A DNA stretch of 64,000 nucleotides from Somniosus microcephalus (GCA_052327205.1 CM126220.1:29698001-29762000), one strand, 5' to 3'. Positions 41,481-63,838 are shown, numbered from the stretch's first letter. Notes: generated by a model from the sequence alone, not told the origin. Numbers and translations: made by a program.

Positions 41481-43059
41481 ACATAATCACAGATATACAT
41501 ACACACTCAGACACGAATATTAACCCAGACACGCACCTATCCGTACACATTCAAACACCCACAATGACAATGCACTCAGATAAACACAGACGCATACAGT
41601 CACACGCATTTCACAGCGACACTGACACACAACTCAGACACACATATTCACACTCAGGCATCCGCACTGTCCCACACTCAAGTGCTCTGTACTTCTTCAG
41701 TTCCCCCCCCTTCTATCCTACTCCAGAGATGTGTCATGCTGCCCAAGCACGGGTACATTGACGTGCTAAAAATATTTTCTAAATAATAAAACAAAGCATC
41801 AGTGCTTTACCAGAACCACTGTGAAGATGTTATCATGCTGTGAGCGGGCGCTCGCACTTGGGGAAGGTTTTTTTTCTGAATTAAGTATTTGGGGATTTTA
41901 ATAGAAGAATATTCATTGAAAAGTTGGTATCGTAAACGCATTAAATAAAAGTTGATTTCCGTATAACCAGTGAATGGCCCTGGGAAGCGCTGGTCGTGTT
42001 ATTGTCCTTTCAGCTCAGTCCCAGTTGCGTTTACCTTGTGCTTTGCATGAGGAGCTGTACATTTCTATATGAGAGTGTAATGGATATTTTCGAAACGATT
42101 GACATTGCCAGCAAGCAGGCAGGGGACAATACAATCAATAGTACAATATATGGTGTGACGTTTCCATCAAAATCCAAACGGACTCGGCTTTATATTAAAG
42201 GCTTTGCTGTTCAATTGGGAGTCAAAATGATCTCTTAGACACTTAGAACAAACTACAAAACACTCGTTAAAAAAAACCCCACCCTCTTATCAAAAGTCAC
42301 ACAGAAAGCGACCAGGGTCCTGGTGTTTCTTTTGCAGCTGCCGATTCTAACCAGGCTACATTTGCTGATCTGGTGCTTACCACATGCCCGCACCTGTTTT
42401 GCGGAAAGGTTGCCCACTTTACTCGCTAACTCCCTTCCCAAACTTCTCCCAAAACATTCAGATGTATTCGAGCTGAAAATGTCGAAAGATTTCACTATCT
42501 ATTAATCAGAGTGTACAATCTTTGCAGGAGACTTGTTACTTGTGTAGGAGATTGCTGATTTGGTCGAACGGACAGCATTCTGTATACGTCGCGATAGAAT
42601 TGGGAATAATTGGGGAATGTTTCTGTCTGGATTCTTGCTTTGTGTGGCTTAGGAGTTGTGTTGTGTCTGGATTCTGTACTCGGTACAATAGGAGTGAATG
42701 GACAGGCAGTCCGACCCGCTGTGATCCGATGCTGAGATAGGCTCTGTGTTTATCTGCAGCAACTGTATGACTTCGCCATTGTCATTTTTCTGTACAGTTT
42801 GCTGGAACTGGAAAGACACTCAGTGTCTGCACAGTGTGATAGCCACAGTTTGTCAGGTGGTGTAGGATTCAGAGTGTGATAGATGGCATTCATAGAGTTC
42901 TATAATGTGTTATTAGAGTGTTATATTCGGTGTTAACCGCAGTGTCAGATTCAGTAACCTGATTCAATTTATTGTCAAATTCAGAGTATATTGTAGTGTG
43001 GTATAGTTTACTAATTGATGATATTAGGAGTACACGGCTGTGTGATTTAGTTCTCAGAG

Positions 43060-43518
43060 TGTAATATTCCAGATGTGATATTTGGAGTATACTGTAAGGT
43101 GTTGTAGTTTAGTAATAGTGAGGCTGGGGTACTGTACACAGATGTGTGATTTAGTTTACAGTATTATTCAGTGTGATATTCCAGGTGTGATATTTGGAGT
43201 ATACTGTAAGGTGTTGTAGTTTAGTAATAGTGAGGCTGGGGTACTGTACACTGATGTGTGATTTAGTTTACAGTAGTATTCAGTGTGATATTCCAGGTGT
43301 GATATTTGGAGTATACTGTAAGGTGTTGTAGTTTAGTAATAGTGAGGCTGGGGCACTGTACACTGATGTGTGATTTCGTTTACAGTAGTATTCAGTATGA
43401 TATTCGGAGTATACTGTAATGTGCTGTAGTTTAGTTATAGTGAGGCTGGTGTACTCTACACTAATGTGTGATTTAGTTTACAGTAGTATTCAGTGTGATA
43501 TTCCAGGTGTGATATTCC
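43060..43518. repeat. 112-bp tandem repeat, about 4 copies
   Basis: TTTGGAGTAT at 43081, 43193 and 43305. The fourth copy has a deletion. Confidence 0.9.
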
Positions 43519-46500
43519 GCAACGGTTGATTTTTTGTTTCGAGTAATGGAGTGATGGGAAACACATCTGTTTCTCAGGAACTGAAACATTCCTGGAGTCC
43601 TCCGAGGGGTAACCCTTTCAATACTGCCAGACTTTAACCTTAAAAGTTGCCTCAGTGCTAGACAGTGTCTAGGGAATGGGCTCCGGGCAAACCTACAGTA
43701 ATAAAAGGAGTATGGAAACAAGTGGGAACTGCGAGAGGAGCAAAGAGCAGATACACAGAGAAATGAATCTTATTAGAACAAAACATTTAATTATTAAAAT
43801 AGAGTTCTGGTGTTTGGGATTTTGCAGACATCCCTCGTTGGGTTAGCAGATTGCAGGAAATAATGTGAATTAAACATTTGGGGGATATGCATAGGGTTTT
43901 AGATTTAACCTGCACCCAGAATCTCTCCCAACAACCGGGACGTGAGAACCGAGATCCACGTCAGCTTTTTCATCGACTTTAGTTTTAATAACCTGAAAAT
44001 TCCCCATAGTAGCGGCAGTAATCCCCGTGAATTTCTGGTTTCAAATTTCTCTTTGAATAATGGCCTGGATCGGCTATCAGTTAACAGGATTTCTGATTAA
44101 AACATGACTAGTAACTTACTGCTTCTAACATTCATGAATTTATCTGGTCATTTCGAAGTGACATAATCAGGCGGTTCTGTAGATTTAAATATTATGACCT
44201 TTTTTGGTAATTGAATTCAGGGTTGGGGTTTTCCACGGAGTCGCTGCTTTCCTGGGTATTGTGTGCTGAGGTTGAGCGGCGAGCCTTTTAATCAACTTTA
44301 TATATAGTTTAAAATCAGAGGAATCTTCACATTACCTGCAATGAAATCGATGAATTTCTTGTGTTAAACCTAATGAGAGGAAGACCAATATAAAACAGTT
44401 TCCTGCACGTTGCTGCGTTTTCGGAATGTATCGATGTGAAAAGGCAGCAGGGATAGGTAAAGGAGCGCTTACTTTGTGTGGGCGCTCGGTTCCCGCTGGG
44501 AGCAATTGTTGGAATGTAACTGGACCGGGCTGAGTCCTGAGCCTCTGTGTCTTCAGGAACCGGGTTCGAGGCCGCCTCTCCCGTGACGCGTTTATCCGTG
44601 TCAGGGAGCGCGGGGCTCGGGGCTGCTCCCTGTCAGGACCCTCGCCTTCTCCTTCACACACCGTCGAAGAGTGCTCATTAGCAGCGATAGTCGCTCATTC
44701 TGGCTTAAATGCAAGATGTTCGGGTGTATCTCACCCCTAAACTAACTCAGCGCCGTCTGTGAAGAGGTGGTCTGCAATTTGGAACTCTGAGCTTAATGTC
44801 ACTCTCACATTTCGCCATTGTGTGTGTGTGTGTGTATATATGTAATGTGTTTGTGCGTGACTGTGTATGTATGTGCGTGTATGAGTGACCGTGCGATATA
44901 TGCCCCCAACACAGATGCAAACACACGCATTTACACACACACACACACACATCCTATTCGTAAACATGCACACACACGACACGCTCCCTTTCTCTCACCC
45001 ACTCCGCTCTCGTTTATGGGGCTAATATTTCACGGTGTGAATTCAAATACTGGAGTGGGGAATGGTCTCGGACTGGCGACGCTCTCTGCTTCCGTGTGGG
45101 AGCTGAGGCGAACACACATTGAAAGTACCAAACCCTTTCACTTCTCTTAGCTGGGTAACCTCACCTTTGCATTCCATCTCCGGTAAATATTTATTTAATA
45201 GTAATTATTTCCCCTAGTAGTTGTGTATTTTTAACTTGCCTTAAACTCGAATTCAATGCGATTGCAATCTGTACAAACTACAATGCGATCGAACAATTTA
45301 CACAACTCAAACAATTGAGACTGGGAAAGAGTGCAAGAAACAGCGGAATCGCGATAGTGTTTGAGGGGAGAGACGGTACTGGTTGAGACAAACAAGTTGT
45401 TCCTGAGCGACACAGGAATGAAACCTTTATAGCCCACTTCACAAAATAGTAATCATTAAATAGAGATGGGAATAAGAGCGTGTTCAGCTTTATATTAAAT
45501 ACCTTTTCATCTATTGAGCGGTTTCTGTAAAGGAGAGCCCAAGAAATGGTCTGTGGGGATATTTGATTTTCTGTGCAATAAGGGACTATTCATCTGCAGA
45601 AGTTGTTTGCAGCCACTCTGAGCTTGATACAGGTTTTGCTGATCATTTGTGTCAGCGTGTTTGGCTCTCTGTTAGATTCTCTAATTAATTTGGTTCACAC
45701 CGATGGTCACTTTAAAAACAAAAAATGCAAAGCTTATGTAATTAAACTCTGTCAATTTCCATCTATTCATGTTGCAAACGGCTCATAAAGGCTTCGGGTA
45801 TTTCCATCACTTGTTTACTGCTAACAGAATGGGATCATGAATGGCATTTATTTAAATAAGTAAATAAATAAATATACAGTCTGATCTGCCTGGAGTAGAA
45901 TGTGTGAGGTGCTATGTTGGCGAAGTGATTCTTTCAGTTCTCGGATGAGCTCCTCTCTTGGTTTCTCCCTCTCTTGTAATGTGGATATTAAATCAGACCT
46001 AACTATAGTTTGAAAACTTCCCTACTCAATTTGCACAGTTGGATTTTCGTCGAATTTCCAAGTGCTGTCACTAAGGTGCTACTATCAGAAAAGACACGTC
46101 TGTTTAATTAAAATATTATAAATGTGTACACTACCGCATTAAAATTACATTGTGCAAAGATTAGCATCTAAATGCTTTATACATTTGTATGCAGTTCCTT
46201 TATCTGCTGCTTTAATCGAGGCATTAACCCCTTTCAAATAAATGAAAAGAAATGGTGACACCGCCAACAAAATACTGCAACAAGGGGTTTCATAGAGGTG
46301 CATGAAACATTCCTACCCTAATCTTCACACCGCATAATACAAGGTCTGCATCATGCTATTAGTATGAATATATATTTTAAAATATTGCTTTTGTCTTTAA
46401 TTTAATCTAAATGCAGTAAGAAACCCCCTCCTCCCCTCCAGCCCAATGTGATATGAGATCCTGTCAATCAAACGCACGTCCCAATCAGACATGGTCAGTG

Positions 46501-46769
46501 GTAAGTCTGAGAGAGAATAGAAGAATTATTAAGAACAGGGAAGTCTCAACAGGCCCATCCCTTTTTTATATAGATCAACCCACCTACACACTTTTCACCA
46601 TGTTCCTTAATCCCTTTTCGTTCTGGAAACACATCCAACTGTTTATACTATCTTCTTTAGTGCCCTTCAGTGATAATTCATTCTACAACTCTATTAACCT
46701 ATGTGTGAAAAAAGTTTTGTGGGAATTTTCTGCTTACTCCTAACTTGCTCATTTTTTTTACAAGTGTCA

Positions 46770-47195
46770 TCAGTGGCTCAGTTCGTAGCACTCTGGCCTC
46801 TGAGTCAGCAGGTTGTGGTTGAGCACATACATCTAGGCTGACACTCCAGTGCAGTGCTGAGGGAGTGCTGCACTGTCGGAGGTGCTGTCTTTTGGATGTG
46901 ACGTTAAGCCGAGGCCCCGTCTGCTCTCTCAAGTGGACGTAAAAGATCCTATGGCATTATTTTGAAGAAGAGCAGGGGAGTTTTCCCCAGTGTCCTGACC
47001 AATATTTATCCCTCAATCAACATCACTAAAACAGATTATCTGGTCATTATCACATTGCTGTTTGTGGGAGCTTGCTGTGCGCAATTTGGCTGCTGCAGTG
47101 ACTACACTCCAAAAAGTACTTCATTGGCCGTGAAGTACTTTGGGACATCCGGTGGTCATAAAAGGCGCTATATAAATGCAAGTCTTCTTTCTTCT
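46770..47195 (+). mobile_element. DeuSINE (SacSINE1-like)
   Basis: Partly deleted tRNA-like head GTGGCTCAGTTCGTAGCAC, Deu domain GGTGCTGTCTTTTGGATGTGACGTTAAGCCGAGG..GTAAAAGATCCTATGGCA..GAAGAAGAGCAGGGGAG, and L2-like tail AGGCGCTATATAAATGCAAGTC. Confidence 0.85.
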
Positions 47196-47249
47196 TTTGT
47201 GAACTCTTTACCTGGATCAGTAACATCAGTTTCCCTTGTAACCGTAAAT

Positions 47250-47495
47250 CATAGAGTCACAGAATCTTACAGCACAGAAGGAAGCCCATCTTTGAGAGAG
47301 CTATCCAATTAATCCCACTCCCCCTGCTCTTTCCCCAGAGCCCTGCAAATGTTTCCTTTTCAAGTATTTATCCAATTCCCTTTTGAAAGTTACTATTGAA
47401 TTTGCTTCCACCACCCTTTCAGGCAGCGCAATCCAGATCATAACAACTCGCTGCGTAAATAAATCCTCTTCATTTCCCCTCTGGTTCTTTTGCCC
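47250..47495 (-). mobile_element. CR1 3' fragment (older subfamily)
   Basis: FTQRVVMIWIALPERVVEANSIVTFKRELDKYL. Confidence 0.85.
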
Positions 47496-48419
47496 GAACT
47501 CTGATTCCATCACCTCACCATTTCTTTTACAGGAAGCTGACCTACGCTTGGATTTTTAATCAAAAAAATAATGTTGATTTCCCCCCCCCCCCCACTCTTG
47601 GGCTGTTTCTCCTCAATGCTTGGTCGAAGTGAGCGTAAGAGCTGCCAGCATGAGGAACTGCTTGGGGTTAAGGGGCAACCCGTGCCCTGCTGGCTGGCAG
47701 TGCGATGCCTTCGTGCACTGATATCCTGTGCCACCAGACCACCCGATCCTGACACTTCTAATCCTAACTGCACACCGTCAGGAAAACAGGGATCAAGTTG
47801 CTTTGCAGATGGGAGATCAATGATCACAGCCCCTAATACTGCTGCCCATCACCTGTAACTAATGCAAAATAGCACATCTGGCAAAAGTAGGGGGGCTCAT
47901 TTCTTTAAATTCTATTTTCTTAGTCTATAGATTTTTTCCAAACTTAAAACTGGTGTGGTAGGTTAAAGTAAGATTTTAAATGTCATTCTCAACACCACTG
48001 CTATATTGGTGACTTGGGGCTGATAATGACACCTCTGTCAGGACTGTATTTCTGGGCTGGATATCTTGTTTCAGTCTTAGCTGAGGAAGGCTGCAGTGAA
48101 GGTGTTAATTGCTCCCGCCATAAGTAGCTCGCTTATTACAGAGCAATTAAATTAGTGCTTTATTTGGAATTATTTTGAAACCAATGCATTCTTAACGTAG
48201 TGAAATAAATGAAATCCCGGTTCAAAAATATAATAATCTCCACCTGTTGCTTTCTATGCCCTGGGAGGCCAAGAATCATGCAAGGGTTTAAGGGTCAATA
48301 GAGACAGTGGGATGGGATGGGGGCTGTTGGCAATTGTTGGAAGAGTTTAATGTGTTGAGATTAAACATGGCTTTAAAAGACTTCCCGAAGGCTCGGTGAG
48401 TTCATTCTGGGAGCTAGCT

Positions 48420-48715
48420 GAGCTGTACGGATCAAGAGGGTCCCAGGTCTTATCCCCTCGGTGTTGAGGTAGCTGAAGTCAGCTGGGTTGGTAAGGGCCT
48501 ACAATTTGCCTCAGCATCACTGGGCCAGGGCACTTGCTCCTGACTGCAGTCCAGTAATCCCTGCTGGAAAATGTATGCGATGAGGAGAAGATCATCAGTG
48601 AAACCTTCCGTGTCTCCTACCCCTGCAGTCAAAATAGCCCGCTGAAACTCACCAACATATGAAGAACAGCCATTTGGGTGAGGTGCTGGAAAGGTGGTGA
48701 GCTACCCCAGCAAAA
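48420..48715 (+). mobile_element. AmnSINE2-like SINE
   Basis: GGTCCCAGGT..GAGGTAGCTGA..CTACAATTTGCCTCAG..CCCTGCTGGAAA..ATGAAGAACAGCCATTTGGGTGAGG. Confidence 0.6.
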
Positions 48716-49103
48716 TTCAACGCCATAAGAAGAGGTGGAGAGAAATTTCGGGGGGAAACAAAATCAGTCACGTGCCATTTATTAGATTGGGGAAAAAAAC
48801 AGTGAACTGTGTTTCTGAGAGCACAGCAAGTGTGATTCACTGCTGTCACACTCGGTTTCAATGACTATTTTGAGATGTGGGTCATTTTTACTCCACCATG
48901 TCAGCAGTGTATGAGTGCAACAGTGAGGACATCACCAGGTCTCCTTTGCTCATGAATAGTATACACGGGTAAGTGTGACATGGTTAATATGTTTAGGAGT
49001 GAGGAATGTCACTTATATTGTGTCCGCCCGTCGTGGGGACAGGTAGACCCGCCACAAGCACAGTCAGCCCTATTGCAGACTCTGTCACTCCTCTGTCAAT
49101 CTG

Positions 49104-49287
49104 GGGGTAATTTTCAACTTCTCTGCCTGGGTAGTAATCTGGCGGAGCGGGTCACCCGCCCGTTGCGAAACCTGCCCGACTTTCCTTGTCTTGATTTGAA
49201 GGGAACGACAATCGGGTGGTTTCTATAAATGGGTGGCTGATTGGCAACACCAGATTACTGCCCAGGCGGCAAGTTGAAACACTACCC
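49104..49287. mobile_element. Harbinger-type palindromic MITE
   Basis: GGGGTAATTTTCAACTT..CCTGGGTAGTAATCTGG / CCAGATTACTGCCCAGG..AAGTTGAAACACTACCC, with a possible CTG TSD. Confidence 0.7.
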
Positions 49288-49481
49288 CTGTCTGTCCAGT
49301 TAAGGACACAGTGACCTAGATTTTCTGGTCACCATTATTTTAACACCTGCTGGAACCCATTTATTTTAATTAACTTACCGCTGACGTTAAAATAACAATT
49401 ATTGGAAAATCTAGGCTTGTCAGTGCTATCACAGACACAGTCAGTCCTGTTAAAGACACTGTCAGTCATATTACGAATACA

Positions 49482-50165
49482 GTCAGCCCTCTTACAGACA
49501 CTGTCAGTCCTATCATGGACACTGTCATGTTACGGATACAGACAGCCCTCTTACAGACACTGTCCGTCCTATCATGGACACTGTCATGTTATGGATACAG
49601 ACAGCCCTCTTACAGACACTGTCAGTCCTATCATGGACACTGTCATGTTATGGATACAGACAGCCCTCTTACAGACACTGTCCGTCCTATCATGGACACT
49701 GTCATGTTATGGATACAGACAGCCCTCTTACAGACACTGTCAGTCCTATCATGGACACTGTCATGTTATGGATACAGACAGCCCTCTTACAGACACTGTC
49801 CGTCCTATCATGGACACTGTCATGTTATGGATACAGACAGCCCTCTTACAGACACTGTTAGTCCTATCATGGACACTGTCATGTTATGGATACAGACAGC
49901 CCTCTTACAGACACTGTTAGTCCTATCATGGACACTGTCATGTTATGGATACAGACAGCCCTCTTACAGACACTGTTAGCCCTATCATGGACACTGTCAT
50001 GTTATGGATACAGACAGCCCACTTACAGACACTGTCCGTCCTATCATGGACACTGTCATGTTATGGATACAGACAGCCCTCTTACAGACACTGTTAGTCC
50101 TATCATGGACACTGTCATGTTACGGATACAGACAGCCCTCTTACAGACACTGTCAGTCATGTCAT
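49482..50165. repeat. 59-bp minisatellite, about 11-12 copies, with diverged ~20-mer flanks
   Basis: Unit GACAGCCCTCTTACAGACACTGTCAGTCCTATCATGGACACTGTCATGTTATGGATACA. Confidence 0.93.
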
Positions 50166-50629
50166 GAACACTTGTCAGTCATGTTACGGATACAGTCAGT
50201 CCTATTATGGGCACCACCAGTCATATTACGGATACAGTCAGTCCTGTCACGGACTATTTCTTTGCTGATTATGACCTAATATTTGTACTTTATCTAACAG
50301 CGATGTAAGTGGTTTTGCTTCACATGGACACTGTAGTTACTACATAAATGCAGTCAGAAACTGGACTCTGGGCCCAACCTGACACCTGTACAAAGTGGCA
50401 TGAGACGCTGTGGAGGAGGTAGTCTCACTCTGCTTTACTCTGGAGTTAGCTGTGGAGCTTGACACTCTATTTATATACTTTATATAAGTTTAATGTCAGT
50501 GCATAGCTGGAACTGCCTCCACTTTCCTGGATATGTGGAAGGATTCAGCGATTGAGGTCACATTAACTTTAAACAGAAGCAAGGAAAATTAAAACTGCTG
50601 GAAAACATAGTTTTGGCTTTTCCAAATGG

Positions 50630-50990
50630 TTCAATGGACAGCTATACTACCTGGTATGGTACTAAGTCTTACATATCAGGAAAATCACAGATTCCATCCC
50701 TGGTCTGCACTGAGTTAACAAACCTCAGCCAGAGTGGTGGTACGGGTGTTACAATTGGCCTCAGCTCTTTAGATTAGTGAGGGTTCTTGCTCCTGATCAC
50801 TATCCGATGACCCCTGGTGGAAAGTGTGTATGTGGGGTGGTTGATGGAGGACTGGTTTGTGATACCACATGGTCAAATAGCCTGCCGACATTCATTGAGC
50901 TCCAACAGGAAACATGATCATTTGGGCAAAGTAGTGGAGGGTGGCTGGCACCTGTAGAACCAAGAGGCAGCACCTTCAGGAGAGGAGTGA
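50630..50990 (+). mobile_element. AmnSINE2-like SINE, near full length
   Basis: GGTTCAATGGA..TGGTACTAAG..CCCTGGTCTGCACTGAGTTA..ACAATTGGCCTCAG..GACCCCTGGTGGAAAGTGTG..AATAGCCTGCCGACA. Confidence 0.65.
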
Positions 50991-51190
50991 TCCCAGTGAG
51001 AGTCAGTGCCTTCAGGAGAGGAGAGATCCCAGTGAGAGTCAGTGCCTTCAGGAGAGGAGAGATCCCAGTGAGAGTCAGTGCCTTCAGGAGAGGAGAGATC
51101 CCAATGAGAGTCAGTGCCTTCAGGAGAGGAGAGATCCCAGTGCTTTCAGGAGAGGACACAGGGAGATTCACTGCTTTCAGGAGAGGATGG
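50972..51190. repeat. 36-bp minisatellite derived from the SINE 3' end
   Basis: Unit CCCAGTGAGAGTCAGTGCCTTCAGGAGAGGAGAGAT, about 4 full copies plus partials. Confidence 0.9.
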
Positions 51191-51519
51191 AAAATAATTG
51201 GAGTGGATTAAAAGGAACTGTCTGAACACAAATATATGCTGGAGTAGCTGCTAATTTTAACAGATGAAATGCTACAAACACGACCAGTGCCTGAGTCTCA
51301 TAACTCAGTTAGAAAAACTCTCTCACTGCAATCAACTGTTCTGGTCATTGTTGTATGTTTATAGTATCTATGACTAGCATGTTCGGAATACCATTATAGT
51401 CGTGTTTCTGCTTTTAAACTAGTGATGAGTAATTGCTGAGTACAAATATTAATGTTGGATTTGATTGGTGCAGTTATTGCCAACTCTACGAAACTCTGAA
51501 TATGATACATTGGATAATG

Positions 51520-52245
51520 GTTTGTGTCTGCACTAGCATGCCTGTCCATCTGCCTGTGTCTGTTGTTCTGTCTCTGTCTTGCAACATCCGTCTGTCTGTC
51601 TGTGTTTTTTATCTGTTTCTGTCTATCTGTGTCCACCTTATCCATCTATTTGTACCTGTGTGTATGTGTTTGTCTGTGTATCTGTGTCCTTCTGTTTGTA
51701 TCAGTCTGTCTTCATTTGTCTTTCTGCATGTGTCTGTTTGGGTCTGTCTGCATCTGTGTCCATCTGTGTCTGCGACTGTCTCTGTCCGTCTATTTGTGCC
51801 CATCTGTCTATGTTCAACTGTCCATCTTTCTTTGTTCATCTGTCTCTGCCCGTCTCTCTGTGTCCATCCGCCTTGGCCTGAATATATGTGTCTATCTGCC
51901 TATGATCGACTACCTGTATCTGACTGCCTGTATTTGTCTGGCTATTTGTGTCGCTCTATGTGTCTGTCTATCTTTGTTCGTCTAACTGTGTCTGTTTATT
52001 TATGTCCATTTATCTATGTCCATCTATCTGTGTCTATCTATCTGTCTGTCTTTGTTTGCCTATCTGCTCCTGTCTCTCTCTCTGTCTCTCTGTATCTGGC
52101 TATCTATCTGTCCATCTTTCTTTGCCTATATGTGCCTGTCTCTCTCCGTCTCTCTGTATCTGTCTAACTGTGTCTGTCTGTCTTTGTTTGCCTATGTGTG
52201 TCTGTCTCTCTGTATCTGTCTCTCTCTCTCTGTCTATCTGTCTAG
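51520..52245. repeat. Low-complexity TCTG/TGTC/TATC-rich tract
   Basis: Degenerate microsatellite-like composition, A-poor on the + strand. Confidence 0.85.
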
Positions 52246-52656
52246 CCCGGATTTTCCAATCGGTGTTATCTTAATGTCGGTGTTAACCTGTTAAAAATCT
52301 ACATCTCTGTCTGTATATTTGGTCATTTATGTCTGTTGGCACTCTGGTATATTTTATTTGACAGGCTGGTGGATGGAATGATTTTTTGAAAAGTTTGCTT
52401 CCATTAGAGCTGCTTGGTGTGTCCATCGGTTGTGTGTTGTGTGCCCTATTTGACATTCAGCAACGGGTGTAAAAAGCTTTGTGTGTTGTGCTGCTCACAG
52501 CAGGCATGTTTCTGGCATCACCTTCACTGCGCCACTTTCCTACTGCCGCGTGGGAAGGTTTATGTTATGTTACTGATTCCAGGCTAGGCTGATGCCAGCA
52601 CAGTCTGATGGTGACTCCTTCAAGGTGTTCCCAAATGTGACATCTCTCATTCAGGA

Positions 52657-52872
52657 ATAACAACAGAAAAAGCTGGAAAAACTCAGCAGGCCAGGCAACA
52701 TCCGAGGAGAGAGAAACAGAGTTAACGTTTCAGGTCGAAGACCCTTCTTCAGAAGAGTTTCAACCTGAAATGTTATCTCTGTTTCTCTCTCCACGGATGT
52801 TGCCTGGCCTGCTGAGTTTTTCCAGCTTTTTCTGTTGTTATTTCAGATTTCCAGCATCCGCAGTATTTTGCT
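52657..52872 (+). mobile_element. Palindromic Penelope-like non-autonomous insertion (copy 1)
   Basis: About 84-bp inverted arms plus a 3' extension, with 15-bp TSD ATCTCTCATTCAGGA (52642-52656 and 52873-52887). The minus strand has CTGAAGA-agggtcttcgacct-GAAACGTT. Confidence 0.85.
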
Positions 52873-53094
52873 ATCTCTCATTCAGGATTGGCTTCCTTGG
52901 TAAAAGAATTCAAACGTTTCCTGAGAGCAGGTAACTCTCTTATCTGTGGCAGGGAATAATTTGCGGCTTGGTGTTGAAAAAAAATCCGTAAAGATGTAAA
53001 TCCTTATCAGGCAGCTCTTGTCACATGTTCTATTTTGCTGCTTTGACAGCAAATGTGTGGGAACAAGGCGTGGAGTTTATTTCTTCCCCCCCCC

Positions 53095-53420
53095 CACCCC
53101 TCCGCCCCATCTCCTGAAGGTACTGACTGATCCTGAGAATGCCAAGTGGGCATTCTTCATGTGTGAGCCTAGGCAGTAAATGTCAGCAGGCTCTTTGACT
53201 GTGGAGACCATCACAGCCAGCTCAATCCTGTCCTCACCCAATCTCCACACAGAAATATTTTCCAGAGGACACTTTGGATCGCAACCGGGAATAGGAACCC
53301 CAGAAGCAATGGGAACATTTGTAGTGACCCCCTGCTGCTCACCTGGCTGAGATCACCGAACTCCGTGCAGACCAGGGAGCATCTGGGTCGGTGTGCTTCA
53401 ATACCATGCTGGGCAGTTCA
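53095..53420 (-). mobile_element. AmnSINE2-like SINE
   Basis: TCTCCTGAAGG..CTGACT..CCAAGTGGGCATTCTTCATGTGTGAGCCTAG..CCTGGCTGAGATCA..CAGACCAGGGA. Confidence 0.65.
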
Positions 53421-53973
53421 AATACAACGCAGCAATCAGGACATCTTTCACTTGCCTCCTTCTCCATTTTCTTTCATACTCTGTTTTTCCTGATTCTGAG
53501 TGTGCACCCTAGAACCTGATCAATGCTAGAATTCGGTACAAGAGTTACTTCTGTGGTGTGTAAGGCCCCCTGTTCCACTCCCCATTCTCCCACGAGTGTG
53601 CTCTTTACTTGCAAGGAACCACATAAGACATTGGATATCTCCTCTCACCTGGGAGTGTTAGTGGAGACTTGGAAATGTTTATGGAAATCAAAGCATCTCC
53701 TCAGCTGATAGCTCTGGTTACGAGTAAGGACCATTGTCTATTTAAAACCATCGATCCGAGGAGCTACACACTGATTCCAAATTGGGGTGACGGGGTAACG
53801 TGTGACCTAGTCCCAGGCCTTTGTTGAGTTGGGAGAGATCAGGAACCGAGTCCAACAGTTAGAAAAGAAGAGGGAGGAGAGAAAGCTCAGCATGCAGCCA
53901 AGTCCCTGACATCAGGGGGCAAACCAACCTTGAACCCATCCTACAGATCTGACAGTGGGGCAGGGTATTGGAG

Positions 53974-54216
53974 TAGGGTCACCAAAGCTCCAGGAGTATC
54001 CCGGAGTCTCCCAGAATTAAAAAATAATCTCCTGGACACTGCTACGAGCAGCCCAGGAGGAAAATCATAGGGGCATTAAAACTAATTGTGTCTTTATTAG
54101 TTATAAAAATATTGGAGATGGGGAAAAGAGGCTGTTTGACTGGGCGGGGCCGTTGAAGGCGTGAGGTCATGTGATGGAACCTCCAGGAATACCCCCAACC
54201 AGAGTTGGCAACCCTA
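53974..54216. mobile_element. hAT MITE (TAGGGTTGCCA family)
   Basis: TAGGGTCACCA...TTGGCAACCCTA with flanks ATTGGAG/ATTGGAA. It is an inverted relative of 60099-60422. Confidence 0.75.
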
Positions 54217-55887
54217 ATTGGAATGGGCATTGAGAGTCAAATAGTCATTTTAAAATGGGGTCGACAAAGAGAGAAACAAAGCCACTTGAGTTGTGTGATG
54301 ATTATAAACTTATAGAACTTGAAAATGCGTAGAGCAGCAAAGATCGTGCCTTTGTTGTGAGTGCTTTGTAGTGATTGCATTTCTAGAGAAAGAAATGGCT
54401 GTCGCAGTCTCTTAAACAGCTAAATTCCATCGGGCAAGTTGGTGATTTGAGGTATTGTGTGATTTGAAGGGGGGAAAGAAAGGACTTTTTTTTCCCCTTT
54501 TCCCGCCACAATTGACCCTGGGTTATATCTTCCCATTCAGCCTCAGCTTGCCTGAGATGGGAAAGGAAGGGTAGGGAGGGCAGGGCCTCTTTCAGAAGCA
54601 GCCAAGTAGAAAGACTAGTTTCTGTAGGCTGTTGGTATCCAATCAGCTCAGAATATGCAGCTGGAACAACCGGTTTATTTGTTAAAAGGAAAAAAAAACT
54701 CAAACCCAGATAAAACGAAAGGCCCAATTCTTGACTCTGATTGTTTAAGGACGTGGTGTATTTCCATTTTGTTGCCATTCAAGGCTATAGCTTGGAAAGT
54801 GAATGGATTGCACATATTCTGAGAGGGGGCAGAGAGAGAGAGAGAGAGAGAGACAGATCAGGGTCTCATGCTTGGCTAGCCATTGAGAGCGGTCGTCTTC
54901 ATACAGGGCTCATGCTGTGTTCGGTGGATGGAACTCGGGCAGTCGTGCAGCAGTTGCTCACAGTTTGTCAGCACGCTCCAGTAGGTGAAAGGGACAAGCC
55001 CGGAGGCTGCGGCAGATATTCAAACTCTGCCCTGTCACTTAAAATCTCCCAGTTGTGCTTAACTACAGTGTACATCTGATTCTCAGGAGCGACCCTCGGC
55101 AGATTGCAATTTCAAATAACTTTCCAGCACAGAAGGAAAGGAAACAACGACAAAAAAAACCCACGCATAATATCACGCAGTAAAACAGACCATGTCTCCC
55201 TGAAGTAAAGCCACTACTTGTGGTTTCTGTTGGAAGGATTCCTGGTTGTGTTTTAAATCCTTAGAGTTTGGTGCTTCTTTTAAAGTCCTTATGATACTGT
55301 ATGAAAGCAGTCAAGGCATATGTTAAAGTGAGAGGCAAACCCATCTTTGTTTTTTAGGAAGAAGATGAAGAGTGTGAGGTATTAAGTTTAGATGCACTCC
55401 TGGAGGCTGGCCAACAAAGGGACCAAATCTTACATGCTCAATTTCACTGATTGTAACTACCTGATAAGTGAAGATTCTAATGAAACGAATTGAAAAATAA
55501 AATTGAATAATGCATTGTTGCTCTGCTCTTGCTCAATTTAATTATTTTTATGTAGGGCGGGGATGGGAATTAGATTTCACACTTGACTGTTTTTGCAGCA
55601 CTGGAATATGTGCATCCAGCATTTAAAAGGCCCATTTCTTTCTCTTTGTTGTCTGTGACTCCCCCTCCCCCTTACTTTCCCTAGTTTGGAGAAGGAAAAG
55701 CGGAACACTTTCGCAATTTCAACTCATGCAGCCTAGATTTTTTTTGTGAAAATGATCTTTCCAGTTTGCTCCCTCCCCACCCCAACCCCCTCAACCCCCG
55801 AGATACTAACTCACCTTGTGGTGTGTTTCCACTGGCATTACCACCCTCCATTACTTCACGCAAGTGGCCAATCTAATTGAAGTCTAG

Positions 55888-56278
55888 ACAACAACAACTT
55901 GCATTTATATAGCACCTTTAATGCAGTAAAATTTCTGAAGGTGCTTCACAGGAGCGATTATCCTCCCAACTTTGACACCGAGCCACATAAGGAGATATTT
56001 GGACAGGTGACCAAAAGCTTGGTCAATGAGGTTGGTTTTAAGGAGCACTTTAAAAGAGGAAAGAGGGAGGCGGGGAGGTTTGGGGAGGGAAGTCCAGAGC
56101 TCAGGGTCTAGGCAGCTGAAGGCACGGCCGCCAATGGTGGAGCGATTAAAATCGGGGATGCGCAAGAGGCCAGAATTAAAGGAATGCAGAGATCTTCAGC
56201 GTGTAGGGCTGGAGGAGGTTACAGACTTAGGAAGGGGCGAGGCCATGGAGGGATTTGAAAACAAGGATGAGAATTTAA
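55888..56278 (-). mobile_element. L2-type LINE 3' end
   Basis: RSTIGGRAFS...FKVLLKTNLIDQAF, with the same tail as 17762-18725 and 24572-25225. Confidence 0.88.
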
Positions 56279-56520
56279 ACATTTTAAAGACAGTGAGTGT
56301 CAGCTGTGGACTCGGGGTCAGCCACGAGAGAGCTGCCCGGTTTGGAATTTTGAAAACACTTCCATAGCTGCTGGTATTTCAGACTTTTGCTTAAAAGTGC
56401 CCTGGTGAATCGACCTTTAAGATTCTAGTCCTCGCTTTCAAATTCTTCCATGGCATCACCTCGCCTCACTTCTGTGATCTTGTCCAGCCAGATATCCCAA
56501 CACCTGCCCTCTGCTCCGAC

Positions 56521-57049
56521 ATCTGAGGAAGGGTGTTCTTGCCATGGAGGGAGTGCAGCGAAGATTCACCAGACTGATACCTAGGATGGCAGGAATGACG
56601 TATGAGGAGGGATTGGGTCGATTGGGCTTATACTCGCAGGAATTTAGAAGAATGAGAGGGGATCTCATCAAAACTTATAAAATTCTAACAGGACTACACA
56701 GACTAGATGCAGGAAGGATGTTCCCGATGGTCGGGGAGTCCAGAACCAGGGGTCACAGTCTAAAGATAAGGGGTAAGCCATTTAGGACAAAGATGAGGAG
56801 GAATTTCTTCACCCAGAGAGTGGTGAACCTGTGGAATTCTCTACCACAGAAGGCAGTTGAGGCCAATTCATTAAATATATTCAAGAAGGAGTTAGATATA
56901 TTTCTTAAGGCTAAAGGGATCAAGGGATATGGGGAGAAGGCAGGGACGGGGTACTGAATTTGGATGATCAGCCATGATCTCATTGAATGGTGGAGCAGGC
57001 TTGAGGGGCCGAATGGCCTACTCCTGCTCCTGTCTTCTATGTTTCTATG
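56521..57049 (+). mobile_element. Young CR1 3' fragment
   Basis: Near-identical to 15336-15865, with a GACATC duplication at 56518-56523 and 57049-57054. Confidence 0.93.
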
Positions 57050-57499
57050 ACATCACCTTACTCTTTGTTCCTCGTTCCCTTCTTGCACCACTGGTGGGTA
57101 CTTGTTCAGTAATTTCCTTCTTCACCAGTGGCATATTTTCTGTTTTTGATAAATACCATAACTTAATTTGCATTGGAATAACCCAACTCCTTGGAAAATA
57201 CCACACATAGTATGTGGTCATTCTTTCTTTAGGCAAAAATAGCAACTGTGCGGCTCTTTTGGTCTTTCGTCTCTGCCCAAAGTGGGGAGTTTCCTGCCTT
57301 TAAAGAAATTTAACATGAAAGAAATATTTTGATTCTGCTCCTGGAGCTTGTGTACGTACTGTATGATGAGTACATGGCGACATTGCAATGGATATGCATG
57401 TGCAGTACGATTTATGTGTGCATATCATCATGTATATGCACGTACAGCATGATCTGTACATGTGCACATTGCTATGTATATATGCACACAGTACAATCT

Positions 57500-57830
57500 C
57501 TGTGTGCACAGTGCCGTGTATGTGTGCATACAGTATGATCATGTGTGTGTGCACAGTGTTGTGCATGTGTGCATACAGTATGATCATGTGTGTGTGCACA
57601 GTGTCATGTATGTGTGCATACAGTATGATCATGTGTGTGTGCACAGTGTTGTGCATGTGTGCATACAGTATGATCATGTGTGTGTGCACAGTGTCATGTA
57701 TGTGTGCATACAGTATGATCATGTGTGTGTGCACAGTGTTGTGCATGTGTGCATACAGTATGATCATGTGTGTGTGCACAGTGTTGTGCATGTGTGCATA
57801 CAGTATGATCATGTGTGTGCATAGTGTCAT
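57500..57830. repeat. 45-bp minisatellite, about 7 copies, alternating variants
   Basis: CAGTATGATC at 57531, 57576, 57621 and onward. Confidence 0.9.
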
Positions 57831-58295
57831 ATATGTGCATATAGGGAGCAATCCATGCCCATGCACAGCCCTGTGTATGTGTATATACAGAATGATCAAA
57901 TAAGATGGTTGTGTTGTGCGGACAGTAGGGTTCATGTATATGCAACCAAGCAGCAGCTGATAATTTTAGAATGGAGCTAGAGTTTAACTTGCTTGTTCCA
58001 ATTTTAAATCATTTTAAGAACAACTTCAGTTGTCCTTGTTTGTCACTTTCTTAGGAGTGCCTCAGTATTATTGACGAGAGTCTGTGTTCAGTGCCACTGA
58101 TGCCATCATGCTTTATGGTTGTACTTGCCAGTCTAGTCATTCAGTACGTCTGCTGATGTCCTTGTAGATGCACTGCAGATTTCTTGGTGCAGAATCTGAC
58201 GTGTTATTAGTAATGACGCTGCTTCTTTTTCTCAACTAAACTACTTTTCAATCGCAAATGTTGATAGGTTAAGAAAAAGGTTTCTGTGAGTGCGG

Positions 58296-58452
58296 GGGGT
58301 GAAGGGTACTTGGGGTGAGGGTACTGGGGTGAGGGTACTAGGGGTGAGGGTGCTAGGGGTGAGGGTGCTAGGGGTGAGGATACTAGGGGTGAGGATACTA
58401 GGGGTGAGGTTACTAGGGGTGAGGATACTAGGGGTGAGGTTACTAGGGGTGA
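58296..58452. repeat. 15-bp G-rich tandem repeat (GGGGTGAGG.TACTA)
   Basis: About 10 copies directly visible. Confidence 0.9.
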
Positions 58453-58719
58453 GCAGTGCCATAGCTCGCTCAGGTACATTCCCTGGAGTGAGGGAAACAT
58501 GGGCCTTAGTTTGGCTGTGTTGATGTAGGAGTTGAACTATGGAGGTGAGGGGTGGAGGAGGAAAGAAAATTTAAGGATGGGGTCAAATTGTGTTGCTTGT
58601 ACACAACCCCAAGAAGATCTTTACAGCTAGGGAGGGGAATAGTTGGACAATAGATAACGAAAGGTGGAGTGATGATTTAACCAGTGTGAGTATATCCTAT
58701 AAACTTGATATATTTTTAG

Positions 58720-59056
58720 ATTCAATCCTTGGGCTGTGTTGAGTTAATTGGTCTCACCAGGCACGTGGAGGTGCTGCAACTCGCCCCAGAACCCCTGGGC
58801 TAGGGGCAATGTCAACAAATAAGCCGATTGCTATTCAGTGACCTCCCTCTGGAAAGTGTATGGGTGTGGATGTTGGGTGAGGTCAAGATCAGGTTTGGCT
58901 ATGATGGCTCCTGGTGGTGGAATAGCTTGCTGACAGTCACTGTCCAGGCTCACACATAATGAACGGCTACTTGGGTGAGGTTCTACATGGTGGCTAATGC
59001 TCCTGGGACCTCACCCCAGGAAGATTCAGCAACATCAGGAGATGAGGGGAGGAAAT
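58720..59056 (+). mobile_element. AmnSINE2-like SINE
   Basis: CTGTGTTGAGTTA..CCCCTGGGCTAGGG..CTGGAAAGTG..GGGTGAGGTCAAGATC..GGCTCACACA..CACCCCAGG. Confidence 0.65.
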
Positions 59057-60098
59057 GGGTGGAAGAGAGACTTGATACATTCACGTTGTAGCTGTTAAAG
59101 GCTGTGGTGGCTCACGATTTAATTGCGAGTGGCCTTGTAATGGGATGCGCTGCTTGTTTTGGGGCGGGAAGGGGGGGTGGGGTGATGGAGGAGTATAGCT
59201 CTGATGACACGTCTGACCGCCCTCTTTATTTTTTTTAGATGCCGTTCTCCACGAGGACAGCTGACACAATGTTGCGATAAAGCAAACGTGTTACTTGTAG
59301 TCTGTAGCTGGGCAGTTGGCGTGCGCATGGGCTGAAAAAAAACGTAAAGCTGTTCGAGGTGTTCAGCGTGACATCGGCGCGCGAGCGCGCGAAAAAAGCA
59401 CGGTGCGTATTTCTAAACAGGATGTGTTGTGCTGATATCAGTCGAGCTGAATGTTGATTAGTCATTTCATTGTGCAGCAGATCACTAAAAGTATCAAGTT
59501 GATCAAGCAATAGAAATACCATACAGTGCAACTCAGAGATACACGCACTTTGTTGGAACAGCCACCATTTTGGGTAACAGGACTCTGTTTTCCCGCTCCT
59601 CGTAAATGTTTACATTAACCTACAATAATGTACTATCTCCTAGGACAGGAGGATAAGTTTTTGTCAGGGGTCACAATCCTGATCTACGTCTTGCTTAGGA
59701 CCCAATCTCAAGAATGCTCCAAACGCTTCACAATTTTGTGATAGGACATAGGTCTTAGTCTGTCAACCCCTCACGCGGTAGTTCCTAATCTCAGTCATGG
59801 CACTGGAGACAGTTGGCAAGTGGAGGCCAGGCACTCCTTTCCCACCCACCCCCTCTGCCCCCCAAATTAGGATAAAACTGCCACACCAATACCTCTGTAG
59901 TTCTATTTTAATAGGGTACTTTCACTTTCTGCATGGAAGCTGGGATGACCCTACCTCCTAATAACATTCCCTTACTTTGCTTTGCCGGAGAACAAGAATG
60001 GGGCATTGCACCGAAGCCCAGCTTGCAGTTGGGTAGGTTGCGAATGCAGATCCAAATGCCCATGGAGCATTGAACCAGCCGAGGGCCACAGATGAAGG

Positions 60099-60422
60099 TA
60101 GGGTTGCCAACTCTGATTGGATGTGTTCCACGAGGTTTCATCATATGACCTCCTGCCTCCAACTGTCCTGCCCCCATGCTCCCAACCATTGGTTACCCGA
60201 CATGTCCATTCACACCACGCCCCGCCTTCCCACGCCAACTGTGAAGCAAACAGACTCTTTGTTACCTGATCGGATGATTCTTGACCATCAGTCAAACAAC
60301 CTTTTAACCCGTCTCAGATTTTTTTTACGCCTCTTTGTTCTGGTTTGCTCGCAGCCAGTGTCCAGGAGATTACTCTTGAATTCCTGGAGACTCCAAGACA
60401 ATCCAGGAGGGTTGGCAACCTA
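60099..60422. mobile_element. hAT MITE (TAGGGTTGCCA family)
   Basis: TIRs TAGGGTTGCCAAC / GTTGGCAACCTA with a perfect 8-bp TSD GATGAAGG. Confidence 0.9.
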
Positions 60423-61714
60423 GATGAAGGGGCAGTGGCCTGCATATGGTTCTCGTGTCATGTTAGGAGCTCCACTGTCCTATTGTTTGCTGTGGTGCAC
60501 TGCATGTTGTTATTTTGATACATTTCTACATTTACTGAATCTGAAAGTATGTTGTCTCGCGAAAGTAGAGCTTAAAAAAATATATAGGTTGCCACCATTA
60601 AAGTGCTCCATTGGGGTGATTCCGCAACCCTATTCTCGCAGGGAGCGTGGGGTCAGTGATAGAGCTACAACTCTGTAACTCTGATTCTTCAAGCCACATT
60701 CCCTCTGAGCGCAACTTGATGTTTGACGTTGGGAGTGTGGGATCGCAGAATCACCCTTTGCATACTGTCCCTTCAGAGTTACAGGTGCGTTAGTGTAACG
60801 GACACCCTTGTAGTCCCAAGATGTTCTGACACTTGAGGTTCTGCTGTCATCAAACAGTCAGGTACAGAAATGAATGGGAGACGGGAACTCCTTTTGTCAG
60901 TCAGTGATCGCTATTCCTATTACTACACACCTCCTCAAGTTCGTGAGTTGATCTATTAGGAGAGCAGTGGGTCAGAGCTGAGTCCTGTCGTTACCTGTCT
61001 AACACATAATCTCACGAGTGGCTTATGGTGCTAAATATAAAGCCTCAAAGCTATTTTGGTATTTTATTCCTTGTTTTGCATCTCCTGGACCCCAGTTTGG
61101 TTGGGCAGGTTGACATCTTTTTAAAGAAATTAACTGTGGGAATCCCCTTACCATCTGAAACCTCTGCACATGGTAGTGCTGGGGGCAGAGAGTGGGATTA
61201 TATTCTTTGACAGAAAAATTGCACTTTTCCGGTTGTTTCAAGATAGTGCAAAGATGAAAGATGTGGTTGATTAAAGGAGGTGGTATCTCTTTCTTCTGGC
61301 CTTAAATAGACTAGAGAATAATTTGTGTCAATTTTGTCTCATCATTTCCAGTTAAAAAAAACTTTGCTGAGGCTCCGTGTAAAATTGGGCTTATCTCACA
61401 ATGAGTAATGTTAGTGGTGTTCGAAATAAAGCCGGCGATGAGCCTTATCATTTCACCTGGAGGGCTGCACCTTATTTTATTCCAAATAAGCACTGACTGG
61501 TGGAGGGTAGTCTTCCACAGGCAGTGGTAGGCCCTGGCTACTTTGCTCAAGTGCCATTTTTCATGTGTGCGTGCAGCGAGTGTCGATAGACAATTCCAGC
61601 ATGAGATGTCCCGACCAAACCCAACCCTGCCAGCGGCTGACATGCACACACGATCAGGAGTGGGGAACTCTGGCAGATTATTACCCTGCTTAGCTCAGGC
61701 GTGCTTATATAAAC

Positions 61715-61860
61715 TAGACACAAAAGGCATCAAGGGGTATGGGGAGAGAGTGGGAATATGGTATTGAGATCGAGTATCAGCCATGATCATATTGAATGGC
61801 GGAGCGGGCTCGAAGGGCCGAATGGCCGACTCCTGCTCCTATTTTCCTATGTTTCTATGT
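61715..61860 (+). mobile_element. CR1 3' tail fragment
   Basis: KGIKGYGERVGIWY-stop, then the CR1 3' UTR and TTTCTATGT tail. Confidence 0.85.
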
Positions 61861-61979
61861 AGCCGCTCCATTGCTGCACCAACTGATATTCACAAACTCA
61901 GCAAAGAGTTCTGCACATAACAACAGAAAATGCTGGAAAAACTCAGCAGGCCAGGCAACATCCGTGGAGAGAGAAATAG

Positions 61980-62015
61980 AGTCAACGTTTCAGGTCGAAA
62001 CCCTTCGTCAGGACT
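61980..62015 (-). ncRNA. Minimal type-I hammerhead ribozyme motif
   Basis: AGUC-CUGACGA-AGGGU UUCG ACCU-GAAA-CGU-U-GACU: stem I AGUC/GACU, stem II hairpin, and palindromic ACGU stem III. Confidence 0.75.
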
Positions 62016-62130
62016 GGACGTTCTTGAAGAAGTTCTGCTCTTCGACGGGATCTCCGTTTGGCTCTTCAACCTTGTTCATCTTCATTGCTTTCAGTTTCCC
62101 TTCTCGTGTTTGATCAGGTATCTGTCAAGC

Positions 62131-62166
62131 AGTCCTGATGAAGGGTTTCGACCTGAAATGTTGACT
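62131..62166 (+). ncRNA. Minimal type-I hammerhead ribozyme motif (CpG-decayed stem III)
   Basis: AGUC-CUGAUGA-AGGGU UUCG ACCU-GAAA-UGU-U-GACU. Confidence 0.65.
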
Positions 62167-63656
62167 CTATTTCTCTCTCCATGGATGTTTCCTGGCCAGC
62201 TGAGTTTTTCCAGCATTTTCTGTTGTTATTTCGGATTTCCAGCATCTGCAGTATTTTGCTATCGTAAAAGAGTTCTGCACCCTTTGGATGTGGAATTTCC
62301 GGAGAATTGAACTGAATGGAAATCCATTCTCTGTAACCTTGCGTTCACAAGAAGAGAAACAGAATAAAATGATCATACTAAAGCAAAAAAAAAAACCCAA
62401 ATGATCTGCAGTGTGTGACCATTTACAGATACTAAAATGATGCAATAATGATTCTCCACCCCAAGAGCTGACAGAATCAGAATCATGTAACTGAATGGTA
62501 TGCTTGCTGTGTCTTTAGGGTCAAGCTAAGTGTACTTCACTGAAGTGGAGACGTGGGAGATGAATTTTTTTTGGGCGGTGGTCAAAATGGGCGATTTTGA
62601 ATCAGCAGCCTGGTTTTACACTCCGCCCGACTGTCTTTGAACAGATGAGGTTGCCGATTGGCTATCGCCCGCTCCGCGCTAGCGCCCCAGACGGATTTCA
62701 CCCCCGGGGTGTCTTTTTGAGTGTTGTGTGTACCGTGTGGTATGAAACGAACAACTGCGCAAATAAAAATGGACTTGACTCGCCCTGTTCAGACGGCAAG
62801 GCCCACGTGCCTTTAAGAAAGCGAATCCTTTGACGTCATCACTTTAAGCTTTTTGGCCAAAATTGATGCTTTAAAAAAACAGACCTCTTGCTGCTTGTTT
62901 CTTCATGTCAGGGTGATTTACCTCATGTGAAGAAAAACAACAAATGCTAAAATCTGACCTTTTGCTGAAGAGAATTCTAAAATGTTTCCCTTGCCCCGTA
63001 CGTGCTGTGAGTGACACCCCTCCCAAGGGGGAATTCTACAACGTCCGAGGGTTCCAGCGTTGCAAGAGGAGTGGACCCAATTGGACAGAGATGGGAATAC
63101 TGTACTTGTGGAAACCAACTTCAGGGTGACAACAGCAGAATGACGACCAATAAGTAAAAATGTTACAAATTCAGCATCAGAGAAGAAAATATAAGTCTCA
63201 TCATCACAGAGAAACACTGAAGGAAGGCTTAAACTTATTTGAATCTGATCTGTTTGGTCACCTCTGGATATAATTGATGGGCCATTCACTTAAAGTAACT
63301 CCACTTGCCCATCTAAATTATTCACAACTAACAGGTGATGATAATTCCTTACTCAAATTATAATTCTCCGGCCTGTAATTTCTTGGTTGGAGTTTAGTCA
63401 CTCCATTGATGTTGTCACATTCTGCTGTTCAACTCATGACATCACCGAGCAGAACAGTTCCTGTGAAAAGGAGGGGTTGTCCACCACAGACGGTTGAACC
63501 CTACAGTTTTACGGAGGAGCGTTTACAGGGGCGGCTGTTGGATCGAGGATTTGCTTTAGGTCAAGGAGAAAAATCTGATTGTTTTTGAAATAGAGAAAGC
63601 GAAATGATCCTTAATCCAGAAAACTAAAACTTATTCTGTTTATTAACCCTTTCCAG

Positions 63657-63838
63657 CCCACGAGCTTTCCCAGAACAAGGCTTCATCAGTCCAGACTGGC
63701 AGCCATTTGCAGTGCCTGTCGGTCCACTGCACAGACGACCTTACTGACTCTAAAGGCCGGAGCCCCATGCAAACTTGGAGATCTTTGCATTCGGACATCT
63801 CTAATCGATTTGGGACATTCGTGGCTGCTTTGACCTGA
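63657..63838 (+). CDS. MN1: MN1 coding exon 2 (C-terminus)
   Basis: TTCCAG|CC CAC GAG... translates (A)[59 protein letters not shown]-stop, the conserved MN1 C-terminus. Confidence 0.97.

Follow-up and report, generated by a model that had tools for sequence, protein, structure and literature searches.

Short inverted insertions in MN1 intron 1 of Somniosus microcephalus as truncated copies of an autonomous Penelope-like element, likely primed from both cut ends

Two hairpin insertions in the MN1 intron

A 64,000-nucleotide stretch of the Somniosus microcephalus genome (GCA_052327205.1 CM126220.1:29698001-29762000), referred to here in its entirety as the window, contains the gene MN1, whose intron 1 holds two sense-oriented inserts, copy 1 (52657-52872, 216 bp) and copy 2 (61917-62266, 350 bp). 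All of their sequence, except for six filler bases, maps to an autonomous Penelope-like element (PLE) of the same genome, and both are very probably short, 5'-truncated, head-to-head insertions of this Neptune-type element, likely primed from both cut ends of the target. The first-pass annotation of the window had described two intronic inserts of these lengths in the same orientation, starting at an identical base, folding into hairpins, sharing a 3' extension and flanked by perfect target site duplications (TSDs) of 15 and 14 bp, and this description was confirmed with exact coordinates. An identical 14-mer opens copy 1 (52657) and copy 2 (61917), the hairpin arms measure 89 nt (93% complementarity) and 100 nt (95%), respectively, and the extension is present on one side only of each. 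TSDs of at least 9 bp arose by chance in one of 299 mismatched-flank controls. In the following list and throughout, position 0 denotes the PLE tail end, negative positions lie 5' of the tail end, and positions with a plus sign are PLE unit coordinates.

52642..52656, plus strand: left TSD of copy 1 (15 bp), exact repeat
52657..52752, minus strand: copy 1 inverted arm, PLE 3' end, untailed, -131 to -36/-37, by mapping to the PLE
52752-52724, minus strand: copy 1 hammerhead core lacking the 5' strand of stem I, within the inverted arm
52752..52872, plus strand: copy 1 direct arm, PLE 3' end, ~-126 to -6, tailed (tail 52842-52872)
52873..52887, plus strand: right TSD of copy 1, exact repeat
61903..61916, plus strand: left TSD of copy 2 (14 bp), exact repeat
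61917..62016, minus strand: copy 2 inverted arm, PLE 3' end, untailed, -136 to -37, by mapping to the PLE
62011-61984, minus strand: core of a complete minimal hammerhead in copy 2, predicted cut after GUU at 61984
62017..62022, no strand: six filler bases between the copy 2 arms, without a reference match in the mapping to the PLE
62023..62129, plus strand: PLE open reading frame (ORF) start fragment, unit +44 to +155, 93% identity, rejoined to -136
62130..62266, plus strand: copy 2 direct arm, PLE 3' end, -136 to 0, 96% identity to the 3' end of the ORF-bearing copy L023
62135-62162, plus strand: hammerhead core of the copy 2 direct arm
62230-62266, plus strand: copy 2 tail, 37 nt
62267..62280, plus strand: right TSD of copy 2, exact repeat

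The arms of both copies are ~87% identical to an intact young subfamily of the PLE and 91-97% identical to an older ORF-bearing copy. As read from the sequence, the copy 1 arms meet over a microhomology of ~3 nt, and the sole match to this centre in the 6.45 Gb genome is copy 1 itself.

The source element

When copy 2 was searched against its own genome (6.45 Gb), 4099 candidates were retrieved, 40 of which were scored. At many loci the right arm extends upstream into a long body, and at L007 the copy 2 middle leads into a reverse transcriptase (RT). A further search of the genome with that RT returned 24,017 candidates, and among the 150 scored, 10 matches lay within open frames of 977-978 amino acids. 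Three of these 10 belong to a tandem at L060/L061 (G000:C10:142776500-142792999), which comprises three nearly identical 3151-bp units, each with an open 977-amino-acid frame. The element has a single ORF encoding an RT followed by a C-terminal GIY-YIG nuclease, with Pfam matches to RVT_1 at residues 500-627 (E 1.6e-6) and GIY-YIG at residues 880-914 (E 0.0015), both below the curated cut-offs (28.4 vs 29.6 bits and 19.2 vs 22.6, respectively). All 18 long frames carry both DKG and the CxxC within the GIY-YIG motif, and a CX4CxxC linker was found in 16, being substituted in one and unparsed in another. According to the portions of the report drawn on here, a CX2-5CxxC linker between RT and nuclease is absent in Penelope and Poseidon (PMC8557442), hence its presence excludes these clades and leaves Neptune or Nematis; from the linker and the vertebrate distribution in bioRxiv 10.64898/2026.07.22.740005, we infer that the element belongs to Neptune.

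Protein relatives numbered 1161 at E<=1e-20, with PF00078 on most among those listed, and the closest named relative was that of Chiloscyllium punctatum (70% identity over 61% of the length). A single arm 36-mer has 15,762 exact matches in the genome, and its reversed control none. The Penelope-like origin given in the first-pass annotation therefore holds for every part of both inserts except the filler, and the autonomous RT plus GIY-YIG element with matching ends that it envisaged exists, in the form of the 977-amino-acid frames. Stop-free frames were also seen adjoining PLE ends at L022 (2-860) and on the minus strand of L023, which look like integrase and gag pieces of long terminal repeat (LTR) elements.

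A continuous series of truncated insertions

An unselected sample was drawn from the first 100 listed matches to the 36-mer (contig 1, 1.9-29.9 Mb), from which 30 loci and 60 regions were taken; four overlapping or duplicate loci (L096, L100, L106 and L107) and five matches were left out, giving 89 insertions. Their lengths ranged from 72 to >2200 bp, with a median of 375 bp, and the same ends flank full-length copies. Exact TSDs of 9-17 bp were present in 42 of the 87 complete insertions; this variable length agrees with the retro-insertion that had been proposed from the long TSDs, and differs from the fixed short TSD of miniature inverted-repeat transposable elements (MITEs). TSD sequences were 62% AT, against a background of 52%. 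Hairpins of up to 231 bp made up 12 of the 89 insertions, all differing in their arm end points.

On this evidence, copies 1 and 2 fall at the lower end of an unbroken length range of 5'-truncated insertions. The continuity of the length series and the uniqueness of both centres argue that they are independent truncated insertions rather than members of a palindromic family, and the separate non-coding parasite family that had been postulated was accordingly not upheld.

The 5' ends of the arms were concentrated at -137 to -121 (27 of 117 arms), which accounts for the many copies of 100-230 bp. Truncation by hammerhead cleavage was considered and rejected, as only two of the 117 arm 5' ends lay at the predicted cut (-104/-103). 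The sequence at -135 resembles an initiator, and this position is a candidate RNA 5' end, with a U-rich slip site as the rival explanation. The Penelope promoter has been located in the pseudo-LTR (PMC2377424).

Two 3' ends and their pairing in inverted insertions

The 3' ends of the PLE fall into two zones, 0 to -8 (tailed) or -28 to -45 (untailed). Single-arm insertions were divided between these, with 32 tailed, 30 untailed and one other, whilst the 26 inverted insertions comprised 23 with one tailed and one untailed arm, three ambiguous pairs and none with arms alike (p=4.4e-5 vs 0.5). In one of the ambiguous pairs (L095) the tail had been split by a later insertion. The same pairing, along with 15-bp TSDs, was observed at insertions of 3.4-6.4 kb with long frames (L066, L067 and L075). 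The first 14 bases common to copies 1 and 2 are the untailed cDNA start site; what had been taken for the defined start point of a family is thus the untailed 3' end of the PLE, ~35 nt before the tail end.

Among 23 inverted pairs, the untailed arm reached further 5' in 13, the tailed arm in 8 and neither in 2, and a single fold-back cDNA could not have produced the 13. Divergence between arms was 0.055 within a locus and 0.086 across loci (28 pairs, p=3.7e-5), and within-locus arms were closer to each other than to other copies in three of the four young pairs compared, a likeness that fits one source RNA. For the Poseidon PLE of the lizard Anolis, the portions of the in vitro study considered here (Frangieh et al. 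2024 PMC11167929) describe cutting and extension of both strands and two internal RT start sites that bound the tail, the tail length being the distance between them. Given the lack of any two alike arms among the 26 pairs, together with the arm lengths, it is likely that both cut ends prime reverse transcription, at different sites on the RNA.

Contigs of four runs aligned on L063:1400-2700 had loose ends at 1941-1945 and 1973 (~-38 to -34 and -6, respectively); these come from three runs of other organisms, and contigs cannot show RNA ends. A joint in one contig on L063 that goes back 160 was too weak and was not used.

Hammerhead motifs

The hammerhead motif was parsed in 73 of 101 arms, with the 3-8 pair being C3-G8 in 23, U3-A8 in 43, mixed in five and other in two, counts that, like those following, track a few subfamilies rather than independent events. 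A9 was present in 70 of the parsed arms and CG at 15.2/16.2 in 61, the stem I pair was C-G in 38, U-A in 12 and U-G in 16, and N17 was U in 59, compared with C in 26 of the 28 arms of the young set. Across these arms the core is conserved, with compensatory changes, and matches the minimal PLE type, as had been anticipated. The pseudo-LTR subfamilies (L080-L199) were seen to differ at positions 3 and 8, in stem I and in loop II, and 25 of the 28 arms of the young intact set have a U3-G8 wobble. In an Rfam scan of 52000-63000, none of the 50 matches at E<=10 was to a hammerhead model, and the microRNA (miRNA)-like matches were weak.

Copy 2 does have a core on each strand (62135-62162 on the plus strand and 62011-61984 on the minus strand), though stem III of the plus-strand core is AUGU instead of the ACGU expected. 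Similarly, the minus-strand core ascribed to copy 1 is present at 52752-52724, but the centre held to have been deleted is in fact the junction of two truncated arms, the direct arm being without the first half of the core. Hammerhead activity at either locus is predicted to be unlikely: the copy 2 cores pair with the opposite arm inside the hairpin (mean probability unpaired 0.001 and 0.10), and the copy 1 core is without the 5' strand of stem I. From the sequence, an antisense arm precedes the copy 2 core whichever strand is transcribed. Motifs of this type are reported to cleave as dimers (Lunse et al. 2017). The notion that the two cores of copy 2 act as a dimer in one transcript fails, since the strands that carry them are opposite and both cores are taken up in pairing between the arms.

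Junctions between the ORF start and the 3' untranslated region

The middle of copy 2, in which the ORF start is rejoined to the 3' untranslated region (UTR), belongs to a wider class. A pattern that placed the PLE ORF start ahead of the hammerhead core matched 198 times, 33 with a gap of <=90 and 165 with a gap of 91-330 (the latter search allowing one more letter), compared with 0 and 9 matches, respectively, for a control anchor 92 nt deeper in the ORF. Among the unselected insertions, 3 of 89 belonged to this class. Sixty junction loci were taken and five overlapping or duplicate ones dropped, and the remaining 55 hold 56 distinct junctions, that of copy 2 being unique among them. The only junction common to two loci is carried by L122 1550 and L125 1550, on different contigs; L125, which has it twice, could be the source of that in L122. 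The ORF side lay at +112 to +187 in 54 junctions (+112 being the lower limit of the pattern), with a hot spot at +138 to +141 (20 junctions), and the UTR side was variable. TSDs of at least 9 bp were present at 18 of the 55 loci.

At 26 of the 55 loci the sequence continues past one turn, crossing +1 to reach the tail. In all 10 loci with a doubled junction the two occurrences are identical, being repeated in tandem in L127, L211, L223 and L226, on both arms in L111, L115, L124, L214 and L218, and also doubled in L125; these mini-units are ~290-420 nt. This identity suggests that the class reflects circular or multimeric templates, which would have formed anew, rarely been amplified, and closed away from the hammerhead cut, a site at which none of the analysed junctions lies. 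Splicing was considered as a junction source and rejected: the element has a donor-like sequence at ~+143 and an acceptor-like sequence at -134, but these two are not connected in any of the junctions analysed.

For copy 2 itself, a jump from the 5' end of a linear RNA fits at least as well as a circle, because copy 2 has a single occurrence of the junction and its inverted arm likewise ends at -136. The retrozyme-like reading in the first-pass annotation is retained for this junction class alone, copy 2 included, and otherwise fails.

Proposed mechanism and alternative explanations

We propose that the GIY-YIG nuclease would cut both DNA strands 14-15 bp apart, and that reverse transcription would be primed by each cut end at its own RNA start site, the two sites being ~35 nt apart. 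The two cDNAs would stop early, often near -135, and be joined head to head via microhomology or filler bases, with gap filling creating the TSD. In copy 2, the tailed cDNA would have run as far as -136, switched to +155 on the same RNA, by a template jump or on a circular RNA, and continued to +44. The hammerheads would be passengers of the pseudo-LTR, predicted to be inactive in the hairpin.

Several observations besides the low Pfam scores weigh against this reading. The intact frames represent a younger subfamily, ~87% identical to the window arms, and the 17 extended loci yielded no intact frame of the subfamily to which those arms belong. Exact TSDs of at least 9 bp were lacking in 45 of the 87 complete insertions. 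The 13/8/2 split in arm reach is approximate in that two reference coordinate systems were mixed for long arms. One of the four young pairs (L051) was no nearer to its partner than to other copies, and gene conversion could also cause arm likeness. Lastly, the start site in vitro was no different between strands in the portions of the Poseidon study considered here (PMC11167929), as against the strict pairing in the genome.

Formation of the hairpin by self-priming or fold-back of a single cDNA, as proposed for rotifer PLEs in part of an earlier report (PMC3846280), would account for the source variants shared by the arms, the short microhomology at the copy 1 centre and the 8 of 23 pairs in which the tailed arm is longer. 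It is nonetheless improbable, since in copy 1 and in 13 of the 23 pairs the untailed arm has 5' sequence missing from the tailed arm, which in turn has the tail, so that neither can have been templated by the other. A distinct family of non-coding, retrozyme-like palindromes sharing a fixed start and mobilised in trans would agree with the common ends and hairpin shape, the dozen short hairpins in the unselected sample and the junction shared by L122 and L125. This explanation has been largely refuted and is now very unlikely, given that those hairpins differ in their arm end points, the copy 1 centre matches itself alone, the 55 junction loci hold 56 distinct junctions, full-length copies are flanked by the same ends and the hammerhead cores are buried. 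A DNA MITE with terminal inverted repeats would likewise be short and non-coding with inverted arms, but is refuted to near certainty by TSDs of no fixed length and the want of a common interior, and further opposed by the one-sided tail and the derivation of all sequence from the PLE.

How copy 2 acquired its middle is a narrower matter. The template of copy 2 may have been a covalently closed RNA circle of ~290 nt (-136 to +155), belonging to a set of many such circles arising de novo from PLE transcripts, an origin favoured by the excess of the junction class over the deeper ORF anchor, by the identity of doubled junctions and by the loci that exceed one turn to enter the tail. For copy 2 we regard this as rather unlikely, given that its junction is single and its other arm ends at precisely -136, the outcome expected of a linear RNA end. 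Moreover, the junction lies within ~14 nt of the core at 10 loci, one of which uses the +138-141 hot spot and none of which was seen to carry its junction twice, and no junction was found at the hammerhead cut.

Relation to known systems

PLEs have been found in all species of one survey, including the elephant shark (PMC4350176). Earlier publications already cover this class of element, the shape of its insertions, their inverted ends and tails, and the hammerheads of PLEs, and the comparisons that follow refer to the portions of each report drawn on here. Insertions of endonuclease-positive (EN+) PLEs (Craig et al. 2021 PMC8557442; Arkhipova et al. 2013 PMC3846280) also feature 5' truncation, partial tandems, TSDs, an inverted 5'-truncated copy at the 5' end and a 30-40 bp tail at one end. 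The rotifer TSDs are 8-10 bp (PMC3846280), whereas those found here reach 17 bp; and the one-sided tail is treated qualitatively in these papers, with self-priming favoured, whereas here it was counted (23 of 26) and two primings are argued. The Poseidon PLE resembles the shark element in that its hammerhead lies upstream of the start sites and no RNA ends at the hammerhead cut, and it requires RNA downstream of the start sites; it differs in belonging to another clade, the linker motif being present here, and those portions report neither a start-site difference between strands nor ORF-start-to-3'UTR junctions (PMC11167929).

Minimal metazoan PLE hammerheads (Cervera and de la Pena 2014 PMC4209133) have in common with those described here the extra base after A9, the palindromic 15.2-16.2, U3-A8 replacing C3-G8, dual opposite-strand motifs 100-700 bp apart and a prevalence in truncated copies; sharks are not named in the portion considered. 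Circles were proposed there to close at the hammerhead cut, a site at which no junction was found here. Non-LTR retrozymes (Cervera and de la Pena 2020 PMC7229834; Li et al. bioRxiv 10.64898/2026.07.22.740005) are alike in their 250-400 nt units, type I hammerhead, kinship to PLE pseudo-LTRs and long TSDs, and a retrozyme survey that sampled one chondrichthyan genome reported such retrozymes there, with a mean consensus of 363 bp (bioRxiv 10.64898/2026.07.22.740005). Retrozymes are, however, amplified families of head-to-tail repeats, whereas the window copies are head-to-head and unique, and the mini-units are nearly all single events of <=~2.5 turns. The literature searched, with Repbase and Dfam outside the search, contained no description of this shark family, the strict arm pairing or the junction hot spot, and the term 'twin priming' did not occur in the PLE papers searched for it.

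Host gene and other features of the window

The host gene was assigned by homology, and comprises the following features.

34607-38306, plus strand: MN1 exon 1, within the open frame 34607-38359
38307..63656, plus strand: MN1 intron 1, holding both inserts, from homology of the flanking exons
~63656-63838, plus strand: MN1 exon 2, from homology

Over residues 780-1235, the frame at 34607-38359 shares 95% identity with a protein of the shark Heptranchias perlo that bears the name MN1, and 63656-63835 matches exactly the last 60 residues of that protein. The exon 2 protein is identical to two named shark MN1 sequences, MN1 being a two-exon gene, and exon 1 has long Pro/Gln runs near its start. 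A Pfam scan of 68 of the 239 window frames gave no match bearing on the host gene.

An interspersed repeat ending in short tandem repeats is present at 4238-4792, 15314-15868, 56521-57049, 61723-61860 and elsewhere, presumably the 3' end of a CR1-type shark long interspersed nuclear element; the insertion that splits the PLE tail in L095 resembles it. Minisatellites occur in MN1 intron 1 at 40010-41321 (period 78 bp), 49347-50295 (59 bp), 57451-57864 (45 bp) and 58296-58475 (15 bp), and two N runs (29077-29361 and 29369-29566) lie far from the inserts.

Implications

As a family, the two inserts are ordinary, being truncated copies of a known retrotransposon class, and hairpins of this kind are prone to be mistaken in annotation for MITEs or miRNA precursors. 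The integration cycle of PLEs has nonetheless been called undefined in the literature, and this genome offers >15,000 ends along with intact young copies. The strict pairing of tailed and untailed arms yields a prediction that can be put to the in vitro assay already available, and the junction class, with its mapped hot spot, suggests how a retrozyme could arise from a PLE.

More broadly, and with somewhat less than even confidence, we suggest that one enzyme complex engages both target ends, directing one of them to the tail site and the other to the start site that lies 35 nt upstream in that RNA, and that the PLE keeps shedding RNA circles of 250-500 nt. If so, two-ended priming would account jointly for tails, inverted pseudo-LTRs and long TSDs. 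The circles, whose 3' side would be focused at +138 to +141 and whose closure would avoid the hammerhead cut, would be copied into cDNA over one to ~2.5 turns. The genome would then record hundreds of independent births of retrozyme precursors.

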